IMG/VR virus record: IMGVR_UViG_3300028832_000096
Strand: one strand, 5' to 3'
From: a virus
Taxonomy: Duplodnaviria; Caudoviricetes
DNA length: 64,000 nt
The notes beneath the pieces are model-generated. The model worked only from the letters and a program-made list of their open reading frames with translations, was not told where the DNA came from and made no database searches. The translations under genes and the position numbers were made by a program. Below are positions 1 through 14,247 of this stretch, one piece after another (within the stretch, counting starts at the first letter, position 1; each line of letters opens with the position of its first letter).

Positions 1-891
1 ATCATATGTATAGCCTAGATTGAATTTAATTACAGCGCTAATGATTTCATCTAATGACTGTCTTCCGAGGTTGCGAATATTTGTAAATGGCTTATCATAG
101 TTGACGATATCATGCAATGTGTTCAACTGGCTTCTCTTCAAGCAGTTATACGTCCTGATAGAGAAATCCATATCCTCAACAATGATGTCTGAAAGAGCTA
201 CACGTTTTACAGGTTCAGGTGTAGGCTTAAGTAATCTAACAGCTTCAAGTCCCGCAGCATACTGCTTGAGCTGCTCGTTTTCTTCCTTGAGCTGCTCGAT
301 AGTAGTTTTTGATGCAAACAACTCTTTCAATGCAAAATGAACTTTGCGAAGAGCTTTAAATTCAATCTGTCTTACTCTTTCTCGTGTAAGTCCTAATTTC
401 TTACCAGCTTCCTCAAGTGTAAGGCTATCTCTATAACGCATTTCGACTACAGCCTGCTCACGGTAATTAAGTCGGTCTCTGAATATTCTATCGAATTCAA
501 AAGGAGTAACATTGCGATAACTCATATCGAATTCGTCGTCATTGTTAATGTCTTCAAAGTACGACATAATAGCTACACCTGCAAGGCTGTAGTTTACAGT
601 AGCGATTATGAAATTGTAGGGAAAAATATCTTCGAGTGTCTGAGTGTGGTCAACCATCAATCTTGCAGCGACCACATTAGAGCAAATCTTTTCAAACTTT
701 GCACTAAAAAGCTTTTCAAGAGCCTTCTGAGCCTTAGGGTCAGGCAAACTAACTAACTGAAGCCATTTCTGAATTGCTGCTTCTGACATTCCAAGAAGTG
801 CAGCAAAATCTCTATATGTGAGATTATTATTCTTGCAATAAAGCCTGATATTGTTGGCCAGACACTCTTTCTGTTCTTCGGGTTTATACAT
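1..891 (-). CDS. XRE-HTH / sigma70 region 4 / RNA polymerase alpha-CTD fusion protein (3' end runs off window)
   Basis: Hand translation from ATG 891 (GGAGG RBS upstream) stays open to position 1. It reads LANNIRLYCKNNNLTYRDFAALLGMSEAAIQKW (XRE), LTLEEAGKKLGLTRERVRQIEFKALRK (sigma 4.2) and VEDMDFSIRTYNCLKRSQLNTLHDIV...IRNLGRQSLDEI (alpha-CTD). Confidence 0.88.
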   Translation of the reverse strand, partial: MYKPEEQKECLANNIRLYCKNNNLTYRDFAALLGMSEAAIQKWLQLVSLPDPKAQKALEKLFSAKFEKICSNVVAARLMVDHTQTLEDIFPYNFIIATVNYSLAGVAIMSYFEDINNDDEFDMSYRNVTPFEFDRIFRDRLNYREQAVVEMRYRDSLTLEEAGKKLGLTRERVRQIEFKALRKVHFALKELFASKTTIEQLKEENEQLKQYAAGLEAVRLLKPTPEPVKRVALSDIIVEDMDFSIRTYNCLKRSQLNTLHDIVNYDKPFTNIRNLGRQSLDEIISAVIKFNLGYTYD

Positions 892-1504: not shown

Positions 1505-1704
1505 AGCCCACCTCCTAGATAAAAGAAGCCATTTATTCGATATAGGATACAGAATAAATGGCGAAAGACTGTATCCGAAGGTTCGCTTATTTTGAAAGGA
1601 GCGGTTATAGGGAATGGAAAGAAACAAGACCCATAACCACTGTCGAGCAAGCCTACAAGAGCAACAAGTAAATAGTGTTATTAACAGAAGTCTTCTGCAA
1701 CAAC

Positions 1705-1791
1705 TGGTGGGAAAGGTAGGAGTCGAACCTACCGAGTCATCTAACAACAGATTTACAGTCTGTCCCGCTACCAGCTACGGACTACTTTCCC
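1705..1791 (-). tRNA. tRNA-Tyr (GTA)
   Basis: GGGAAAG/CTTTCCC acceptor, CTGTAAA anticodon loop, long variable arm, GTTCGACTC T-loop, encoded ACCA. Confidence 0.93.
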
Positions 1792-1794
1792 ATA

Positions 1795-2230
1795 AGGTAG
1801 GAGGCCTAACCTCCCTTGTCGGAGTTATCAGTCATTCTCCGAGTTCCCGCTAGCCGGCGACTGAGTACCTCCGGGCACGGTGTTCAGGTAAAAGAAGCAT
1901 CGGGCACATGTCGGCTTGCCAGTTGACATAAGGACTGTTACTACCTTAGTCGATGCTTGAGTCGGGAGCCTACTTTCCCCTGCAAGGCCCAACCTTACTT
2001 GTCTGGCATCTCACCAGAGTTCCCTCTGTCTGATTTGTATACCGCAAGTATGAGGTGGGTGGGCAGTTGCAACTCCCCAGTGCGGTTTTGCTACGATAAG
2101 ACCTGCCAAGTCTCTGTCTCTTGTATTCGTAGCCATACTCTGTATCTTGCTCACCGTTCCAAGATAGTATAAACGCCGATAAATTTCGTGTATCGGTCAC
2201 GGCTCGTTTTGGCAGGAGAGAGCGACCCCT
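1795..2230 (-). ncRNA. unclassified structured RNA(s), including a long-range pseudoknot
   Basis: No credible ORF. Many perfect helices: AAGCATCG/CGATGCTT, TCGGAG/CTCCGA, and CCTGCCAA/TTGGCAGG crossing GCTACGA/TCGTAGC. Confidence 0.55.
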
Positions 2231-2368
2231 TGGTGAAGGGTGATAGGAGTCGCACCTATCAGTTGATAACATTCCTAGCCTAACGCAATCCCCTCAAAAA
2301 TTTCTTCTTGATTCGCTACTGCGTAGTTATCGCTATAGGATAACCCGTCTACTTTGCGGCAACCCTTC
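2231..2368 (-). ncRNA. tRNA-like RNA with anticodon arm replaced by a long hairpin
   Basis: GAAGGGT/ACCCTTC-A-CCA acceptor, CCG/CGG D-stem, GATAGG-TGCGACT-CCTATC T-arm; no 7-nt anticodon loop. Confidence 0.75.
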
Positions 2369-2530
2369 ATGTTAATGCAGATTTGTTTGTCGTAAACCTC
2401 TTAGGTCGCGCTCACCCGTATGAATACTGTTAGAAGTTCTGCTTCTCCTAGTGACTGACTCTTATCGCTGGCTGTCACCTACTCCCGCCAAGGTTTTTCT
2501 AGAGAGGTACTTGGAACTACACCTCATTAG

Positions 2531-2630
2531 TGAAGTAGGTTAGGACTCGAACCTAACATGTCCGTGTCTTTTCGATTTAAGGTTCTTGCACGAACTAACG
2601 CCATAGTGTCTGCCGTTCCACCACTACTTC
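2531..2630 (-). ncRNA. tRNA-like RNA (Leu-type D arm, no canonical anticodon arm)
   Basis: GAAGTAG/CTACTTC-A acceptor, GTGGAACGGCAGACAC D-arm, GTTAGG-TTCGAGT-CCTAAC T-arm. Confidence 0.75.
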
Positions 2631-2849
2631 ATATTTGAGGGTTCACCTTGTATCACCCACAGGTTCTCTTGTTTAACTACCGTCTTTAACCACCTTATCA
2701 ACAAGCAAGTTACAGTGGTGCAATAGTGACCGCTCACCTAATAGGCTTCTTTGTGTTTTTACTCCTCCATCCCACTATCGACTTCGAAAACCTCTAACGA
2801 GGAAATGAGTTGAGTTTTTGAAGAGGTACTCCTTTGTTAAACTCTTAGG

Positions 2850-2962
2850 TGAAGTAGGTTAGGACTCGAACCTAACAGGGAAATCTCCCGATTTCCTGCC
2901 TCCTATGTCATCTTAAATAAGATGCAACTCGGACGCTGTGTTTACCTATCCACCACTACTTC
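2850..2962 (-). ncRNA. tRNA-like RNA, paralogue of 2531-2630 with a different middle
   Basis: Acceptor and T-arm identical to 2531-2630; extended CATCTT/AAGATG arm and GGAAATC/GATTTCC variable arm. Confidence 0.75.
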
Positions 2963-3115
2963 ATATCTAATGTGAGTGTAAGAATAACCTAACCACGACT
3001 GGTTCGACTTGATTATTCCCATTTGTCGGTAGCACTCACAACTACCGCTGTCCTATTATCGTTGACAGGTACGCCTAACCATTATTAACGCCTTTGCGCT
3101 ACAGGGTATAGGAAT

Positions 3116-3267
3116 TGGAGACGGGAGACTAGATTTCTACTAGCAATTTCTAGGAGCTACCCCAGCCGTGTTTCACTATACCAGCTACGTATAGTGGCAA
3201 TCGCTGTATTCCATCATCGATAGCGCTACTCGACAACGGGTACAGATTACCTTTACACTACTCCCTC
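3116..3267 (-). ncRNA. degenerate tRNA-like RNA with two hairpins inserted in the D-loop
   Basis: GAGGGAG/CTCCC(G)TC-T-CCA acceptor, GTGT/ACAC D-stem, GCTAG-TAGAAAT-CTAGT T-like arm. Confidence 0.55.
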
Positions 3268-3304
3268 TGGTGATAAGTTTTTAAGAGAGAACCTACCAAA
3301 CTCT
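3268..3304 (-). ncRNA. 37-nt H-type pseudoknot ending in ACCA (copy 1)
   Basis: AGAG-TTTGGTAGGTTCT-CTCT-TAAAAA-CTTATC-ACCA. Confidence 0.65.
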
Positions 3305-3471
3305 AAGGTATAATGATGTACTATGGCACATCCGAAGATGTAAAATCCACATTCATTTTGTGCGTACATCAGGCACTCACCTGACCAGCGGAGTGATATA
3401 GGTCATTGTTCCGTGACATTAGCCTTTGTCCGAACATCTCCATCTCCTAGTGGCTAACTCAATGGAGTGGT

Positions 3472-3508
3472 TGGCGATAAGTTTTTGAGAAGAACCTACC
3501 AAACTTCT
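3472..3508 (-). ncRNA. 37-nt H-type pseudoknot ending in GCCA (copy 2)
   Basis: AGAAG-TTTGGTAGGTT-CTTCT-CAAAAA-CTTATC-GCCA. Confidence 0.65.
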
Positions 3509-3564
3509 GAATATAAGGCACATCTAAACGATTTCATAATGTATAAAATTGCTGTAAGTGCCTT

Positions 3565-3594
3565 TGGTGAGAGGTACTTGGGATTACACCTCTC
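3565..3594 (-). ncRNA. 30-nt acceptor-stem microhelix ending in ACCA
   Basis: GAGAGGT-(12-nt loop)-ACCTCTC-A-CCA, with 0-nt junctions on both sides. Confidence 0.6.
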
Positions 3595-3713
3595 TGGTTT
3601 AGGGCGGGTAACATAGACATAACGCTTGTCATTTCTGATACCCTGTGTCCACCCGTTCATCAAACACGTTACACTGACTTGCACTGTCAGGATTTGCGAG
3701 TGTACAACCCTAA
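3595..3713 (-). ncRNA. acceptor-closed structured RNA ending in ACCA
   Basis: TTAGGGT...GCCCTAA-A-CCA; starts immediately after the previous CCA. Confidence 0.65.
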
Positions 3714-3750
3714 TGGTGATAGGTTTTTAACAAGAACCTAACAAACTTGT
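3714..3750 (-). ncRNA. 37-nt H-type pseudoknot ending in ACCA (copy 3)
   Basis: ACAAG-TTTGTTAGGTT-CTTGT-TAAAAA-CCTATC-ACCA; the first stem covaries relative to copy 2. Confidence 0.65.
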
Positions 3751-3786
3751 AGCTTTCATTGCCCAGGATAGCTATAACTTGGGCCT

Positions 3787-3863
3787 TGGTGGACAATCAA
3801 GGACTCGAACCTTGGACCAACCGGTTATGAGCCGGTAGCTCTGACCAACTGAGCTAATTGTCC
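3787..3863 (-). tRNA. tRNA-Ile2 (CAT, lysidine type); tRNA-Met less likely
   Basis: Canonical cloverleaf GGACAAT...GGCTCATAACC...ATTGTCC-A-CCA; resembles Bacillota tRNA-Ile(CAU). Confidence 0.88.
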
Positions 3864-3960
3864 ATTGGTGTTGGTGTGACCTATAGATATTCTTTGTGGT
3901 CAACTTTTCTCCAACTGTGGTCGTATGATATCCTACGATTTAGTCAGATTCTCTAACCCC

Positions 3961-4050
3961 TGGCAGGCGGTTTCCTATAGGTATTTGCATGCTATTGTTT
4001 CTCCGATTATCTCGTTGAGCTCTACAAGATAATAAGATTCCCTACCGCCT
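3961..4050 (-). ncRNA. acceptor-closed structured RNA ending in GCCA
   Basis: AGGCGGT...ACCGCCT-G-CCA with an internal ATTATCTTG/CGAGATAAT hairpin. Confidence 0.65.
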
Positions 4051-4176
4051 TGGTAATAGATAGGCTGTTCCTCGAACTCCATTTAACTACTGCCCAGCCG
4101 TTACGCTAAGCTCTTTCGGAATTGGGATTCGTCCAAGTCTCCCCACGCCCTAAGAGGTCCGTAGCACCTATCTACT
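4051..4176 (-). ncRNA. acceptor-closed structured RNA ending in ACCA
   Basis: 10-bp closing stem AGTAGATAGG/CCTATCTATT-A-CCA, starting right after the tRNA-Leu CCA. Confidence 0.65.
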
Positions 4177-4264
4177 TGGTGCGAATAGTCGGATTTGAAC
4201 CGACACGGATTATTAGTCCGACGGATTTTAAGTCCGTTGCGTCTGCCAATTTCGCCATACTCGC
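4177..4264 (-). tRNA. tRNA-Leu (TAA)
   Basis: GCGAGTA/TATTCGC acceptor, CTTAAAA anticodon loop, long variable arm, encoded ACCA. Confidence 0.94.
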
Positions 4265-4282: not shown

Positions 4283-4582
4283 TTACAACATCAAATCTGT
4301 ATACAATTTCTGTAAATCAGATAAGATTTCTTCTAGTTTAACCCTATCAATTTCTTTATCATTTAATGCTTTATCTAAATCGTTGATACATTCTTTATAA
4401 CGATACGCAAATCTATTAATAAGAATTTCTGCTTTTTCTTCATCTTCTTTAACGAGCATATCAAACAAATCAGCTGATTCTCTACCTAACTTATCATTGA
4501 TGATTCGTTCAAACTCTTTCTTGTCATCAGAATCTTTGTTGGTAAAGAACTTATCTCCGTCAGATGTTTCAAGATAAAACAT
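4283..4582 (-). CDS. hypothetical protein
   Basis: 99-aa ORF with an RBS, coupled to the upstream gene. Confidence 0.75.
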   Translation of the reverse strand: MFYLETSDGDKFFTNKDSDDKKEFERIINDKLGRESADLFDMLVKEDEEKAEILINRFAYRYKECINDLDKALNDKEIDRVKLEEILSDLQKLYTDLML

Positions 4583-5297: not shown

Positions 5298-5699
5298 TTA
5301 TTTGTAAAGTATTTCAACTACATTGTTTTCACTTTCGCTGACAACTTTTTCTCTATCACTCATTACGAATAATAGGAATTTACTAAGCTCTTTGTCGTGT
5401 AACGTCTGTATAGATGAAGTATCTCGGCGAATATCATCATTTACTTCATTAGCCCAGTAAAGTGTAACAGCTACCTGAGAAGTATTTGTAAAATATCTAT
5501 TATTATGATATGCCCACGAAGGCATTGTTATACGTGCTGCAACAACATATTCTGAATTCTTAATGGCTATGGCTTTTTCTATCTCCATTCTGAGTTTATT
5601 TTGATATTCTTCGCCTTTACCATTATGCCATTCATCCATTGTTATAAACATACATCTATCTCCTTTTGGAATATTGATACGCGTACTATAACGATTCAT
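5298..5699 (-). CDS. hypothetical protein
   Basis: 133-aa ORF. Confidence 0.7.
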   Translation of the reverse strand: MNRYSTRINIPKGDRCMFITMDEWHNGKGEEYQNKLRMEIEKAIAIKNSEYVVAARITMPSWAYHNNRYFTNTSQVAVTLYWANEVNDDIRRDTSSIQTLHDKELSKFLLFVMSDREKVVSESENNVVEILYK

Positions 5700-7805: not shown

Positions 7806-8264
7806 TTAATCCTTTAGCTTACTTCTTTTAATACCATTCAAGTACTTATCACTAGTATGAGTGCTCTTAGCAGCTTCCATCGTTACACCTAAGATATTTA
7901 CTTTAAATGTATGTTCTTCATCAATGTCGTAAAAAGCTGAAAATTCTAATGGAATATAAGTATCATCTACTGAAAAAGAAGATGGAAAACAACTATCCCA
8001 TTCATATCCTTTACTTTCAAAGTACCTTATTAGTTCTTTGCAATAATCTTCTGGAGTATTATTCCAATCTCCAGTTTCTTCCATCATTCTTTCTCGCTCT
8101 TCTTCAGGTATCCAGCGAATGAACATATCTATATCTGAATCTTCATTTTGCATACCATACGCATAGCTACCGGTAACAATTACTTTATCCTTAATATCAT
8201 TAAGGATTCTTACTAGAGCTGCTTTAGAGCTTAATTTTGATGATGCATTTATATATAGTTTCAT
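7806..8264 (-). CDS. Pol-beta-superfamily (MNT-like) nucleotidyltransferase with leader
   Basis: IVTGSYAYGMQNEDSDIDMFI (hGS...DxD motif); starts MKLYINASS. Confidence 0.8.
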   Translation of the reverse strand: MKLYINASSKLSSKAALVRILNDIKDKVIVTGSYAYGMQNEDSDIDMFIRWIPEEERERMMEETGDWNNTPEDYCKELIRYFESKGYEWDSCFPSSFSVDDTYIPLEFSAFYDIDEEHTFKVNILGVTMEAAKSTHTSDKYLNGIKRSKLKD

Positions 8265-14193: not shown

Positions 14194-14247
14194 ATCATTT
14201 AAGGTTATATTATCACACCAATTATAAAGAGTATGAATCGTTATTGT
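14194..14247. promoter_or_regulatory. divergent promoter pair (class-L on minus, class-E on plus)
   Basis: AACCTT-A-AATGAT (minus, 14194-14206) and AATCGT-TATTGT (plus, 14236-14247). Confidence 0.5.

Follow-up and report, generated by a model that had tools for sequence, protein, structure and literature searches.

What is made from a stretch of phage DNA in which three tRNA genes stand among many structured sequences that are not tRNAs, and why do so many of these end in an encoded CCA? The question was raised by an array on the minus strand of a 64,000-nucleotide stretch of DNA (the window), which represents the virus record IMGVR_UViG_3300028832_000096 of IMG/VR (Duplodnaviria; Caudoviricetes). 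The array consists of about 25 structured non-tRNA units placed head to tail around three tRNAs, and ten of the non-tRNA units copy only the CCA acceptor end of a tRNA, three of the ten by means of a pseudoknot. Four kinds of unit were distinguished: tiles, which begin with zero spacer after a CCA and are closed by a 7-bp stem and NCCA; 37-nt H-type pseudoknots ending in RCCA (PK-CCA, or PK); tRNA scaffolds with a 13-bp stack of acceptor and T stem; and CCA-less RNAs. The structure, conservation and modularity of these units and the geometry of their junctions were established by comparison with related loci. From these patterns, the tRNA-like ends would serve as tags for processing and stability, by which host enzymes could free a library of non-decoding RNAs, a reading to which a probability of about 0.55 was assigned.

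Composition of the array and geometry of its junctions

Exactly three canonical tRNAs were found with ARAGORN and Rfam, as had been proposed in an earlier reading made from the letters of the window alone (the sequence-only reading). These are tRNA-Leu(UAA) (4177-4264) and tRNA-Tyr(GUA) (1705-1791), both with an encoded CCA, and a tRNA with a CAU anticodon (3787-3863), which was called as Met and which, judged by C4-G69 and the loop, looks like Ile2. Cloverleaf tRNAs with a 7-nt anticodon loop thus make up 3 of about 28 elements, and the array falls outside the ordinary definition of a tRNA cluster. In the Rfam scan of the array at the gathering threshold, no family other than tRNA was matched, which left the other units (about 25) without a family, and at E up to 10 only the tRNAs and weak matches appeared (Plastid models on the strand opposite to the tRNAs, and a 20-nt pseudoknot of tobacco mosaic virus at E 0.64).

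Eleven CCAs had been proposed as the ends of non-canonical units, and all of them are present. CCA as a word is not enriched in the array (35 seen, 33.7 expected). Stems of at least 7 bp that run from the first base after a CCA to the next NCCA occur four times (4177>4051, 4051>3961, 3714>3595 and 3595>3565), against an expectation of 0.056 and a maximum of 1 in 500 dinucleotide shuffles, and none was found on the plus strand. Stems of 7 bp are closed by 13 CCAs, compared with 4.7 ± 2.0 in shuffles. Nine of the 11 proposed termini were retained (4051, 3961, 3714, 3595, 3565, 3472, 3268, 3116 and 2231) and two were given up: the CCA at 2716 belongs to a helix (to its 5′ strand) in the unit that follows, a helix that covaries and in several relatives has no CCA, and the unit that stops at 3866 is a degenerate member of the 4050-3961 family with a broken closing stem. 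The stems proposed to begin at 3564 (3564-3515) and 1704 do adjoin a CCA, yet neither ends in an NCCA itself, and the units ending at 3714, 3472 and 3268 are pseudoknots and not simple stems; the pseudoknot and 13-bp scaffold families had been overlooked. The description of all units as tRNA mimics was likewise too broad, since about half of them are not and have no CCA. Beyond the span first described lies U20 (about 1665-1515, with an approximate 3′ limit), a structured and conserved element that separates the array from the next gene; it has counterparts at L018, L040, L054 and L085 and could be the tail of the array or the leader of the downstream gene.

Related loci (L-numbers) were collected by pattern searches, which gave about 70 loci and about 55 after duplicates and chance matches had been dropped; the matches at L020, L053, L082 and L083 were rejected as they looked like chance, in coding or unrelated DNA. 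Homologs exist for nearly every part of the array. In the related loci, 61 distinct zero-spacer stem-NCCA matches were obtained, which comprise ten recurring families and singletons, a few of them perhaps due to chance; control trinucleotides gave 2-13 zero-spacer matches, against 43 for CCA. Tile stems are mostly exactly 7 bp, a purine precedes the CCA in 55 of the 61, and none of the 61 was called a tRNA. Such exact zero-spacer stems closing on NCCA need selection.

In the window (all coordinates of units are on the minus strand), the first tile, U1 (126 nt, 4051-4176), follows the CCA of tRNA-Leu with zero spacer and ends with an 11-bp closing stem and ACCA; it was assigned from stem statistics and from its one full homolog, which is likewise placed directly after tRNA-Leu and ends in CCA. 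U2 (90 nt, 3961-4050) has a 7-bp closing stem and GCCA. All six of its homologs lie between two CCAs, and the closing stem carries compensatory changes among copies, with both-sided changes in 8 of 22 pairs. Comparison with U2 identified U3 (3866-3960) as its paralog with a decayed closing stem. U5 (119 nt, 3595-3713; 7-bp closing stem and ACCA) rests on stem statistics and on the homolog at L057, which is also placed after a PK and has a compensatory change of the U2-A to A-U type at the stem end. The next unit, U6 (3565-3594; folding z -4.0), is a 30-nt hairpin with ACCA; its CCA is present as proposed but was not seen in relatives, and the unit, a truncated duplicate of the head of U15a (2525-2502, 92% identical), is probably lineage-specific. 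U9 (152 nt, 3116-3267), with a bulged closing stem and UCCA, lies between two CCAs in all three copies and is probably a second scaffold type, because a homolog keeps D- and T-like arms.

Pseudoknots, scaffolds and CCA-less RNAs

The PK-CCA fold is a 37-nt H-type pseudoknot with stems of 4-5 and 7 bp, a loop 1 of UUU, an A-rich loop 3 and a terminal RCCA. The three window copies are PK1 (3714-3750; stem 1 of 5 bp, stem 2 of 7 bp with one U.U, ACCA), PK2 (3472-3508; GCCA), identified by pseudoknot search and covariation, and PK3 (3268-3304; ACCA), identified by pseudoknot search. Stem 1, in which the bases before UUU pair with the loop, varies by copy (ACAAG/CUUGU, AGAAG/CUUCU and AGAG/CUCU), and its variable pairs lie outside the search pattern. 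Among 76 distinct units the mean length of stem 1 was 4.4 bp, against 3.05 ± 0.11 bp with shuffled partners, and mutual information reached 0.93 at two pairs, with off-diagonal values up to 0.35. The covariation count, which is inflated by kinship among the sequences, gave 92% paired cells and 32 double changes, a score as high being reached in 0 of 500 shuffles, with 45-56% in slid controls. Four pair types at one position, together with differences between paralogs within one genome, would be hard to obtain without structure. Explanations of the 30-nt repeat as a plain minihelix, a boxA-like motif or halves of an RNase III stalk were dropped, as stem 1 covaries within each copy.

The CCA is kept in 33 of 39 PK copies beyond the seed copy of each search, up to 5-6 copies occur per genome, and the upstream neighbours vary among loci. 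In three complete genomes the PK is confined to tRNA regions. A lone PK-CCA (L081:6955-6986, plus strand; also L079 and L084) was found 9-13 nt after the stop codon of a tail-like gene, whose identity was read from the sequence, in a Peptostreptococcaceae prophage in which no tRNA was seen nearby; this placement fits a portable processing signal. Two further observations were made in the related loci. A second type of CCA-ended pseudoknot, which differs in stem 1 and has a loop 2 of 3 nt, occurs at L024 (about 8435), L064 (about 6561), L076 (about 5786) and L077 (about 3555), and a conserved tRNA-like gene whose anticodon loop has 6 nt (ARAGORN 'cg') lies about 27 nt after a PK at L019:2200-2272, L037, L038 and L075.

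The scaffolds SC1 (2847-2962), SC2 (2528-2630) and SC3 (138 nt, 2231-2368), assigned from homologs and, for SC1, from the fold, consist of a T arm, a class II-like D arm and an acceptor stem of 7 bp, and between the arms they carry varied cargo of 50-125 nt, which in SC1 takes the place of the anticodon. Of 32 scaffolds, 27 have a stretch of 13 nt from the T loop to the discriminator, which exceeds that of a normal tRNA by one; the 6-bp T stem is found in several compensated versions. About 40-50% of scaffolds have an encoded CCA; SC3 ends in ACCA and its CCA end is kept in five of five homologs, and SC1 and SC2 have none. Scaffolds of the latter kind could gain a CCA via the host CCA-adding pathway. 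SC1 cannot decode, because the loop at the anticodon position varies in length among homologs.

About 12 structured RNAs have no CCA (U4, U7, U8, U10, U12, U13, U15a, U16-U19 and a PK variant); homologs were found for each of them, and compensatory changes can be seen. Three of them, U4, U15a and U16, begin with an H-type pseudoknot of their own right after a CCA. U4 (3751-3786), a small pseudoknot that follows the CCA of the CAU tRNA and is fused to PK1, has compensatory changes, read by eye, in two homologs; in U15a (about 150 nt, 2373-2526) both stems of the 5′ pseudoknot covary; and U16 (2095-2230) follows the CCA of SC3. The head of U16 resembles a preQ1-I riboswitch in architecture, but this assignment was rejected, since loop 2 is a single U without the ligand-pairing C and no Rfam hit was obtained. 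U7 (3515-3564) consists of a stalk of 7 bp with the conserved motif ACAGCAA and cargo that varies; it is known from 15 distinct copies of 43-132 nt and often precedes a PK. At L033 (about 560-690, minus strand) a stalk of the U7 type encloses an apparent circularly permuted tRNA, in the order T arm, acceptor 3′ strand, CCA, four U, acceptor 5′ strand and D arm.

The conserved RNA U8 (about 155 nt, 3315-3471) lies directly after a CCA in 11 of 11 copies; U10 (2972-3115) also follows a CCA and is usually succeeded by a scaffold. The PK-like variant (2810-2845; three loci) was read by eye and was not called by the pseudoknot finder. Eight homologs were found for U12 (2721-2805) and ten for U18 (1893-1980). 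U13 (2638-2720) holds the 2716 CCA inside its first helix, and U17 (1982-2088) is the most widely shared unit of this kind (about 22 loci). U19 (1798-1885) has its 3′ half in common with U17 and usually stands 6-9 nt before a tRNA. A hairpin (1677-1704) that adjoins the CCA of tRNA-Tyr has no CCA, and comparison with relatives gave no conservation of its sequence. A tRNA, scaffold or PK begins within about 10 nt after U8 (9/11 copies), U19 (9/12), U15a (5/7) and U10 (4/6), a layout expected if the 5′ cut of the next unit makes their 3′ end.

Known RNA classes were also sought. Neither Rfam nor our own descriptor (not validated on known ribozymes) detected a ribozyme of the hepatitis delta virus (HDV)-like or theta type in the array; no YrlA or Y RNA was matched by Rfam in the array; and no transfer-messenger RNA (tmRNA) was found in the window by ARAGORN and Rfam. 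Two related loci contain 81-nt units (L045:1235-1315 and L064:1381-1461, both plus strand; Rfam tmRNA, 72 and 62 bits) that comprise a tRNA-like domain with G3.U70 and no message domain and are placed like a tRNA gene; the copy at L045 has a CCA end and is followed by U17. In another related tRNA array, a DUF3800-I RNA was matched by Rfam just over the cut-off (L076:6592-6693, plus strand).

Module order differs among phages (29 mapped loci), modules are mixed with 0 to 35 tRNAs in related arrays, and modules are shared by phage genomes of 175, 200 and 467 kb. The units therefore behave as separate genes and not as one large RNA. Together with covariation, conservation of the CCA and the lack of a match to ROOL or GOLLD, this bears out the central proposal of the sequence-only reading, a polycistron of separate, conserved, CCA-punctuated RNA modules.

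Release of the units and competing explanations

From the junctions we infer transcription, enzymes, cut sites and product stability as follows. The array would be transcribed as one long RNA and cut apart by host tRNA-processing enzymes. The cutting marks would be the NCCA-ended acceptor-like helices (tRNAs, 13-bp scaffolds, 7-bp tiles and 37-nt pseudoknots), which would also give protected, defined ends. Ribonuclease P (RNase P) would cut at the 5′ base of every NCCA-closed helix and so free the 3′ end of the upstream unit; in the PK, the predicted site falls where the UUU loop meets the first G of stem 2. RNase P cuts RCCA-ended pseudoknots in loop 1 as well as the turnip yellow mosaic virus (TYMV) structure (PMC12710915), and it separates T-even dimeric precursors spaced by less than 5 nt (PMC11143913). 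A second host activity would cut or trim directly behind the CCA, freeing the 5′ end of the CCA-less units. One RNase P cut per junction had been proposed to mature both neighbours; this can hold for six of the 12 zero-spacer junctions (Leu-U1, U1-U2, U2-U3, PK1-U5, U5-U6 and PK3-U9), but not for the other six (CAU tRNA-U4, U6-U7, PK2-U8, U9-U10, SC3-U16 and Tyr-hairpin), which lead into CCA-less units and therefore need a 3′-side cut. Cargo is flanked by tRNA-like marks in the case of U7, U8, U10 and U15a, and no mark is present within the runs U12-U13 and U16-U19. The working parts would be mainly the cargo folds, within scaffolds and tiles and in the CCA-less units, swapped as modules by phages; their likeliest partners are host translation or immune proteins. 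Genes for RNase Z-type enzymes, Pth2, Ro60 and RtcB were found neither in three complete related genomes nor among the scanned proteins of the window, so that processing is probably carried out by the host. A gene for a CCA-adding enzyme is present only in the 467-kb genome among the three complete relatives, and none was found among the scanned proteins of the window.

Several observations weigh against these proposals. The promoter scan gave 12 matches against 12.4 expected, which is chance level, and no promoter was located. True tRNAs of the same arrays have a zero spacer in 0 of 127 cases (mode, 3-6 nt), and the first base of tiles is A in 35 and G in 14, not the G+1 preferred by RNase P; the 5′ ends of tiles may therefore come from a 3′-side cut and not from RNase P, in which case the second, CCA-side activity might make these ends too. 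The invariance of the PK is overstated, since the search pattern itself accounts in part for UUU, G/A+1, RCCA and some of stem 2. A cutting mark would seem superfluous where a PK has a CCA-ended unit on either side, as some do, and the strong conservation of the PK, which carries no cargo, might point to an independent function.

Such a function might be that of a decoy. The CCA-ended units, especially the 37-nt pseudoknots and 7-bp tiles, could offer acceptor ends to defence enzymes that act on the CCA end (the toxSAS enzymes FaRel2 and CapRel, and MenT-type nucleotidyltransferases), and stem 1 would then shield the 5′ end of the PK from RNase P; we regard this as unlikely, if well worth weighing. 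The PK copies are many and mostly keep their CCA (33/39), and acceptor-length stems with purine discriminators would suit such a role. A bare minihelix is enough for modification by FaRel2, which reads no more of it than CCA and the first five pairs, and the stem preference varies among toxSAS enzymes (10.1101/2024.07.05.602228), both of which favour the decoy role. Decoys and tags are also compatible and do not exclude each other. Stem 2 of the PK (G-C, G.U or U.U, U-A, A-U, G-C), however, lacks the FaRel2 determinants C2-G71 and G4-C69, many tiles begin with A-U, and half of the scaffolds have no encoded CCA; moreover, 80-150 nt of cargo are conserved, far past the needs of an end decoy, and the lone prophage PK in a tail operon misfits an abundant decoy. 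Anticodon nucleases and ribosome-bound RelA sensing, which the sequence-only reading had named as further targets of decoys, are poor candidates, since the units would present no anticodon loop; acceptor-end enzymes alone remain plausible.

The scaffolds, tiles or PKs might instead be aminoacylated non-decoding RNAs, which would either donate amino acids or act as sponges for synthetases, EF-Tu or T-box leaders, a possibility that we consider quite improbable. G1-C72 and A73 are retained in scaffolds, as is a class II-like D arm, and bacterial leucyl-tRNA synthetase does not read the anticodon. By analogy with tRNA-Sec, the 13-bp stack (27 of 32 scaffolds) could keep scaffolds off EF-Tu, and the 81-nt tmRNA-like domain of the relatives, with G3.U70 and no message part, would also agree with charging. 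On the other hand, G3.U70 is present neither in the PK nor in the window tiles, the acceptor sequences of tiles differ between families, and charging of the TYMV structure needs its anticodon arm, which the PK does not have. It is also conceivable, as a tentative and wider view, that jumbo phages of the gut or rumen independently evolved the pseudoknot mimicry of plant viruses in 37 nt, and that such pseudoknots, tiles and scaffolds are released as swappable CCA-end decoys or charged non-decoding RNAs which neutralise host tRNA-end defences.

That the CCA-less units are never released, the mature RNA being a CCA-ended unit together with the cargo that follows it and the CCA only a recombination joint, is very unlikely. 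Modules are indeed swapped at CCA boundaries, and a cut directly behind the CCA calls for a putative host enzyme. However, the cargo of U8 and U16 is found behind different upstream partners (PK, tile or scaffold), so that a fixed fusion product is unlikely, and the selection needed for exact zero-spacer, NCCA-closed stems also speaks against it. Decaying tRNA remnants, chance hairpins or one large ornate RNA (ROOL, GOLLD) are hardly credible, for although a few features are decayed or private (U3 and U6; SC1 and SC2 without CCA) and several single units fold only modestly better than shuffles, these explanations are refuted for most units by covariation and the shuffled order, with modules shared by 175-, 200- and 467-kb genomes and no Rfam match.

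Genomic setting and comparison with known systems

The array occupies about 2.7 kb without a credible gene on the minus strand, with raised G+C, from a 99-aa gene (ending at 4283) to a small gene (starting near 1503). Protein coding over the array (e.g., the open reading frame 1970-2272) was rejected, because the reading frames cross shuffled modules and homologs have frame-breaking indels. Protein scans of the window gave a Gp23-type major capsid protein, a prohead protease, a head-tail adaptor, baseplate proteins and a CHAP/lysozyme protein, the last of which suggests a Gram-positive host. The array is thus probably the tRNA operon of a large T4-like phage (Gp23 capsid) with a Gram-positive host of the gut or rumen. 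Contigs of uncultured phages, 175 and 200 kb in size, are its nearest relatives (adaptor protein identity, 89-91%), and one array fragment belongs to a Clostridia bin. The samples are probably rumen for the most part. The distant relatives L005-L016 (adaptor protein, 70-78%) have no tRNA or array within 10 kb of the adaptor gene, and the array is therefore lineage-specific at that site.

A motif, AATCGTTAT, is repeated before gene blocks at 5696, 947, 23149 and 62722 (minus strand) and at 14236 and 16907 (plus strand) of the window and heads the arrays of L001, L003, L017 and L040. From this placement it is likely a phage promoter element, and the window array may be read from 5696. A fusion protein of an XRE-type helix-turn-helix, sigma-70 region 4 and the C-terminal domain of the RNA polymerase alpha subunit is encoded at 1-891 (minus strand); it is kept downstream of the array in L003 and is a candidate phage transcription regulator. 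A minimal Pol-beta-type nucleotidyltransferase is encoded at 7806-8264 (minus strand), 3.5 kb upstream of the array.

No description of the array, the pseudoknot or the scaffolds was found in the literature searched, in which few subscription journals were covered. When the array was compared by blastn with 50,697 phage records, the best 20 matches listed lay over the tRNAs only, and the matches of the PK in cultured phages had E values of 0.2 or worse and lay inside coding genes. The sequence-only reading knew of no described array of this design; tight spacing with RNase P cleavage and stable non-tRNA RNAs have precedents in T4 (PMC11143913, PMC3014915). The tRNA region of T4 contains eight tRNAs and yields two stable non-tRNA RNAs, RNAC and RNAD, of unknown role (PMC3014915, PMC9697503). 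The array resembles this region in having non-decoding RNAs among phage tRNA genes, T-even precursors being also tightly spaced and cut by RNase P (PMC11143913), and differs from it, as compared by description, in having three tRNAs with about 25 units of at least four designs that are shuffled between genomes. What sets the array apart is the scale, the zero-spacer rule, the stand-alone pseudoknot mimic of an acceptor and the 13-bp scaffolds, none of which turned up in Rfam, among the best matches in cultured phages or in the literature searched. RNAC and RNAD have stayed unexplained for decades, and here such RNAs outnumber tRNAs by about 8:1, in many exchangeable families. The dozen uncatalogued CCA-less folds are candidates for new ribozymes or protein-binding RNAs.

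Theta ribozymes are structured RNAs directly 3′ of gut-phage tRNAs and are tied to tRNA 3′ processing (PMC10879173), whereas the array gave no HDV-like fold with Rfam and our own descriptor. ROOL and GOLLD are likewise large structured RNA regions near phage tRNA genes, but these are single fixed folds, and the array has no Rfam match and a shuffled domain order. In the engineered tRNA scaffold of Ponchon and Dardel, the top half of a tRNA reportedly carries a foreign RNA in place of the anticodon arm; the phage scaffolds, in contrast, occur naturally, have an acceptor/T stack of 7+6 bp and carry many alternative cargos. In mitochondrial tRNA punctuation and in the mascRNA of MALAT1, cleavage is by both RNase P and RNase Z, and the CCA is a later addition. 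The array is like these in that tRNA-shaped elements mark cuts in a long transcript, and unlike them in that the CCA is encoded, the marks are mostly mimics other than tRNAs and the cargo consists of small structured RNAs. Zero spacer after CCA, a 7-bp stem and NCCA form a rule that gives sharp predictions for RNA ends.

The topology of the PK is that of the TYMV acceptor arm. Both are H-type pseudoknots with a short U-rich loop 1, stacked stems and a 3′ NCCA, a design that is a substrate of RNase P (PMC12710915). Unlike a tRNA-like structure of the TYMV type, the PK is 37 nt long, stands alone, is repeated, has stems of 4-5 and 7 bp and has no T, D or anticodon arm; it is internal to the transcript of a DNA phage (Gp23 capsid) and not at the 3′ end of an RNA genome, and no Rfam family of tRNA-like structures was matched in the array. 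Outside plant viruses, it is a minimal mimic of an acceptor end that occurs in nature and is short enough for synthesis, and it bears on the open question of RNase P cutting of pseudoknots in vivo (PMC12710915). The array would function in the manner of tRNA punctuation and of the TYMV acceptor arm, yet it is a member of neither family.

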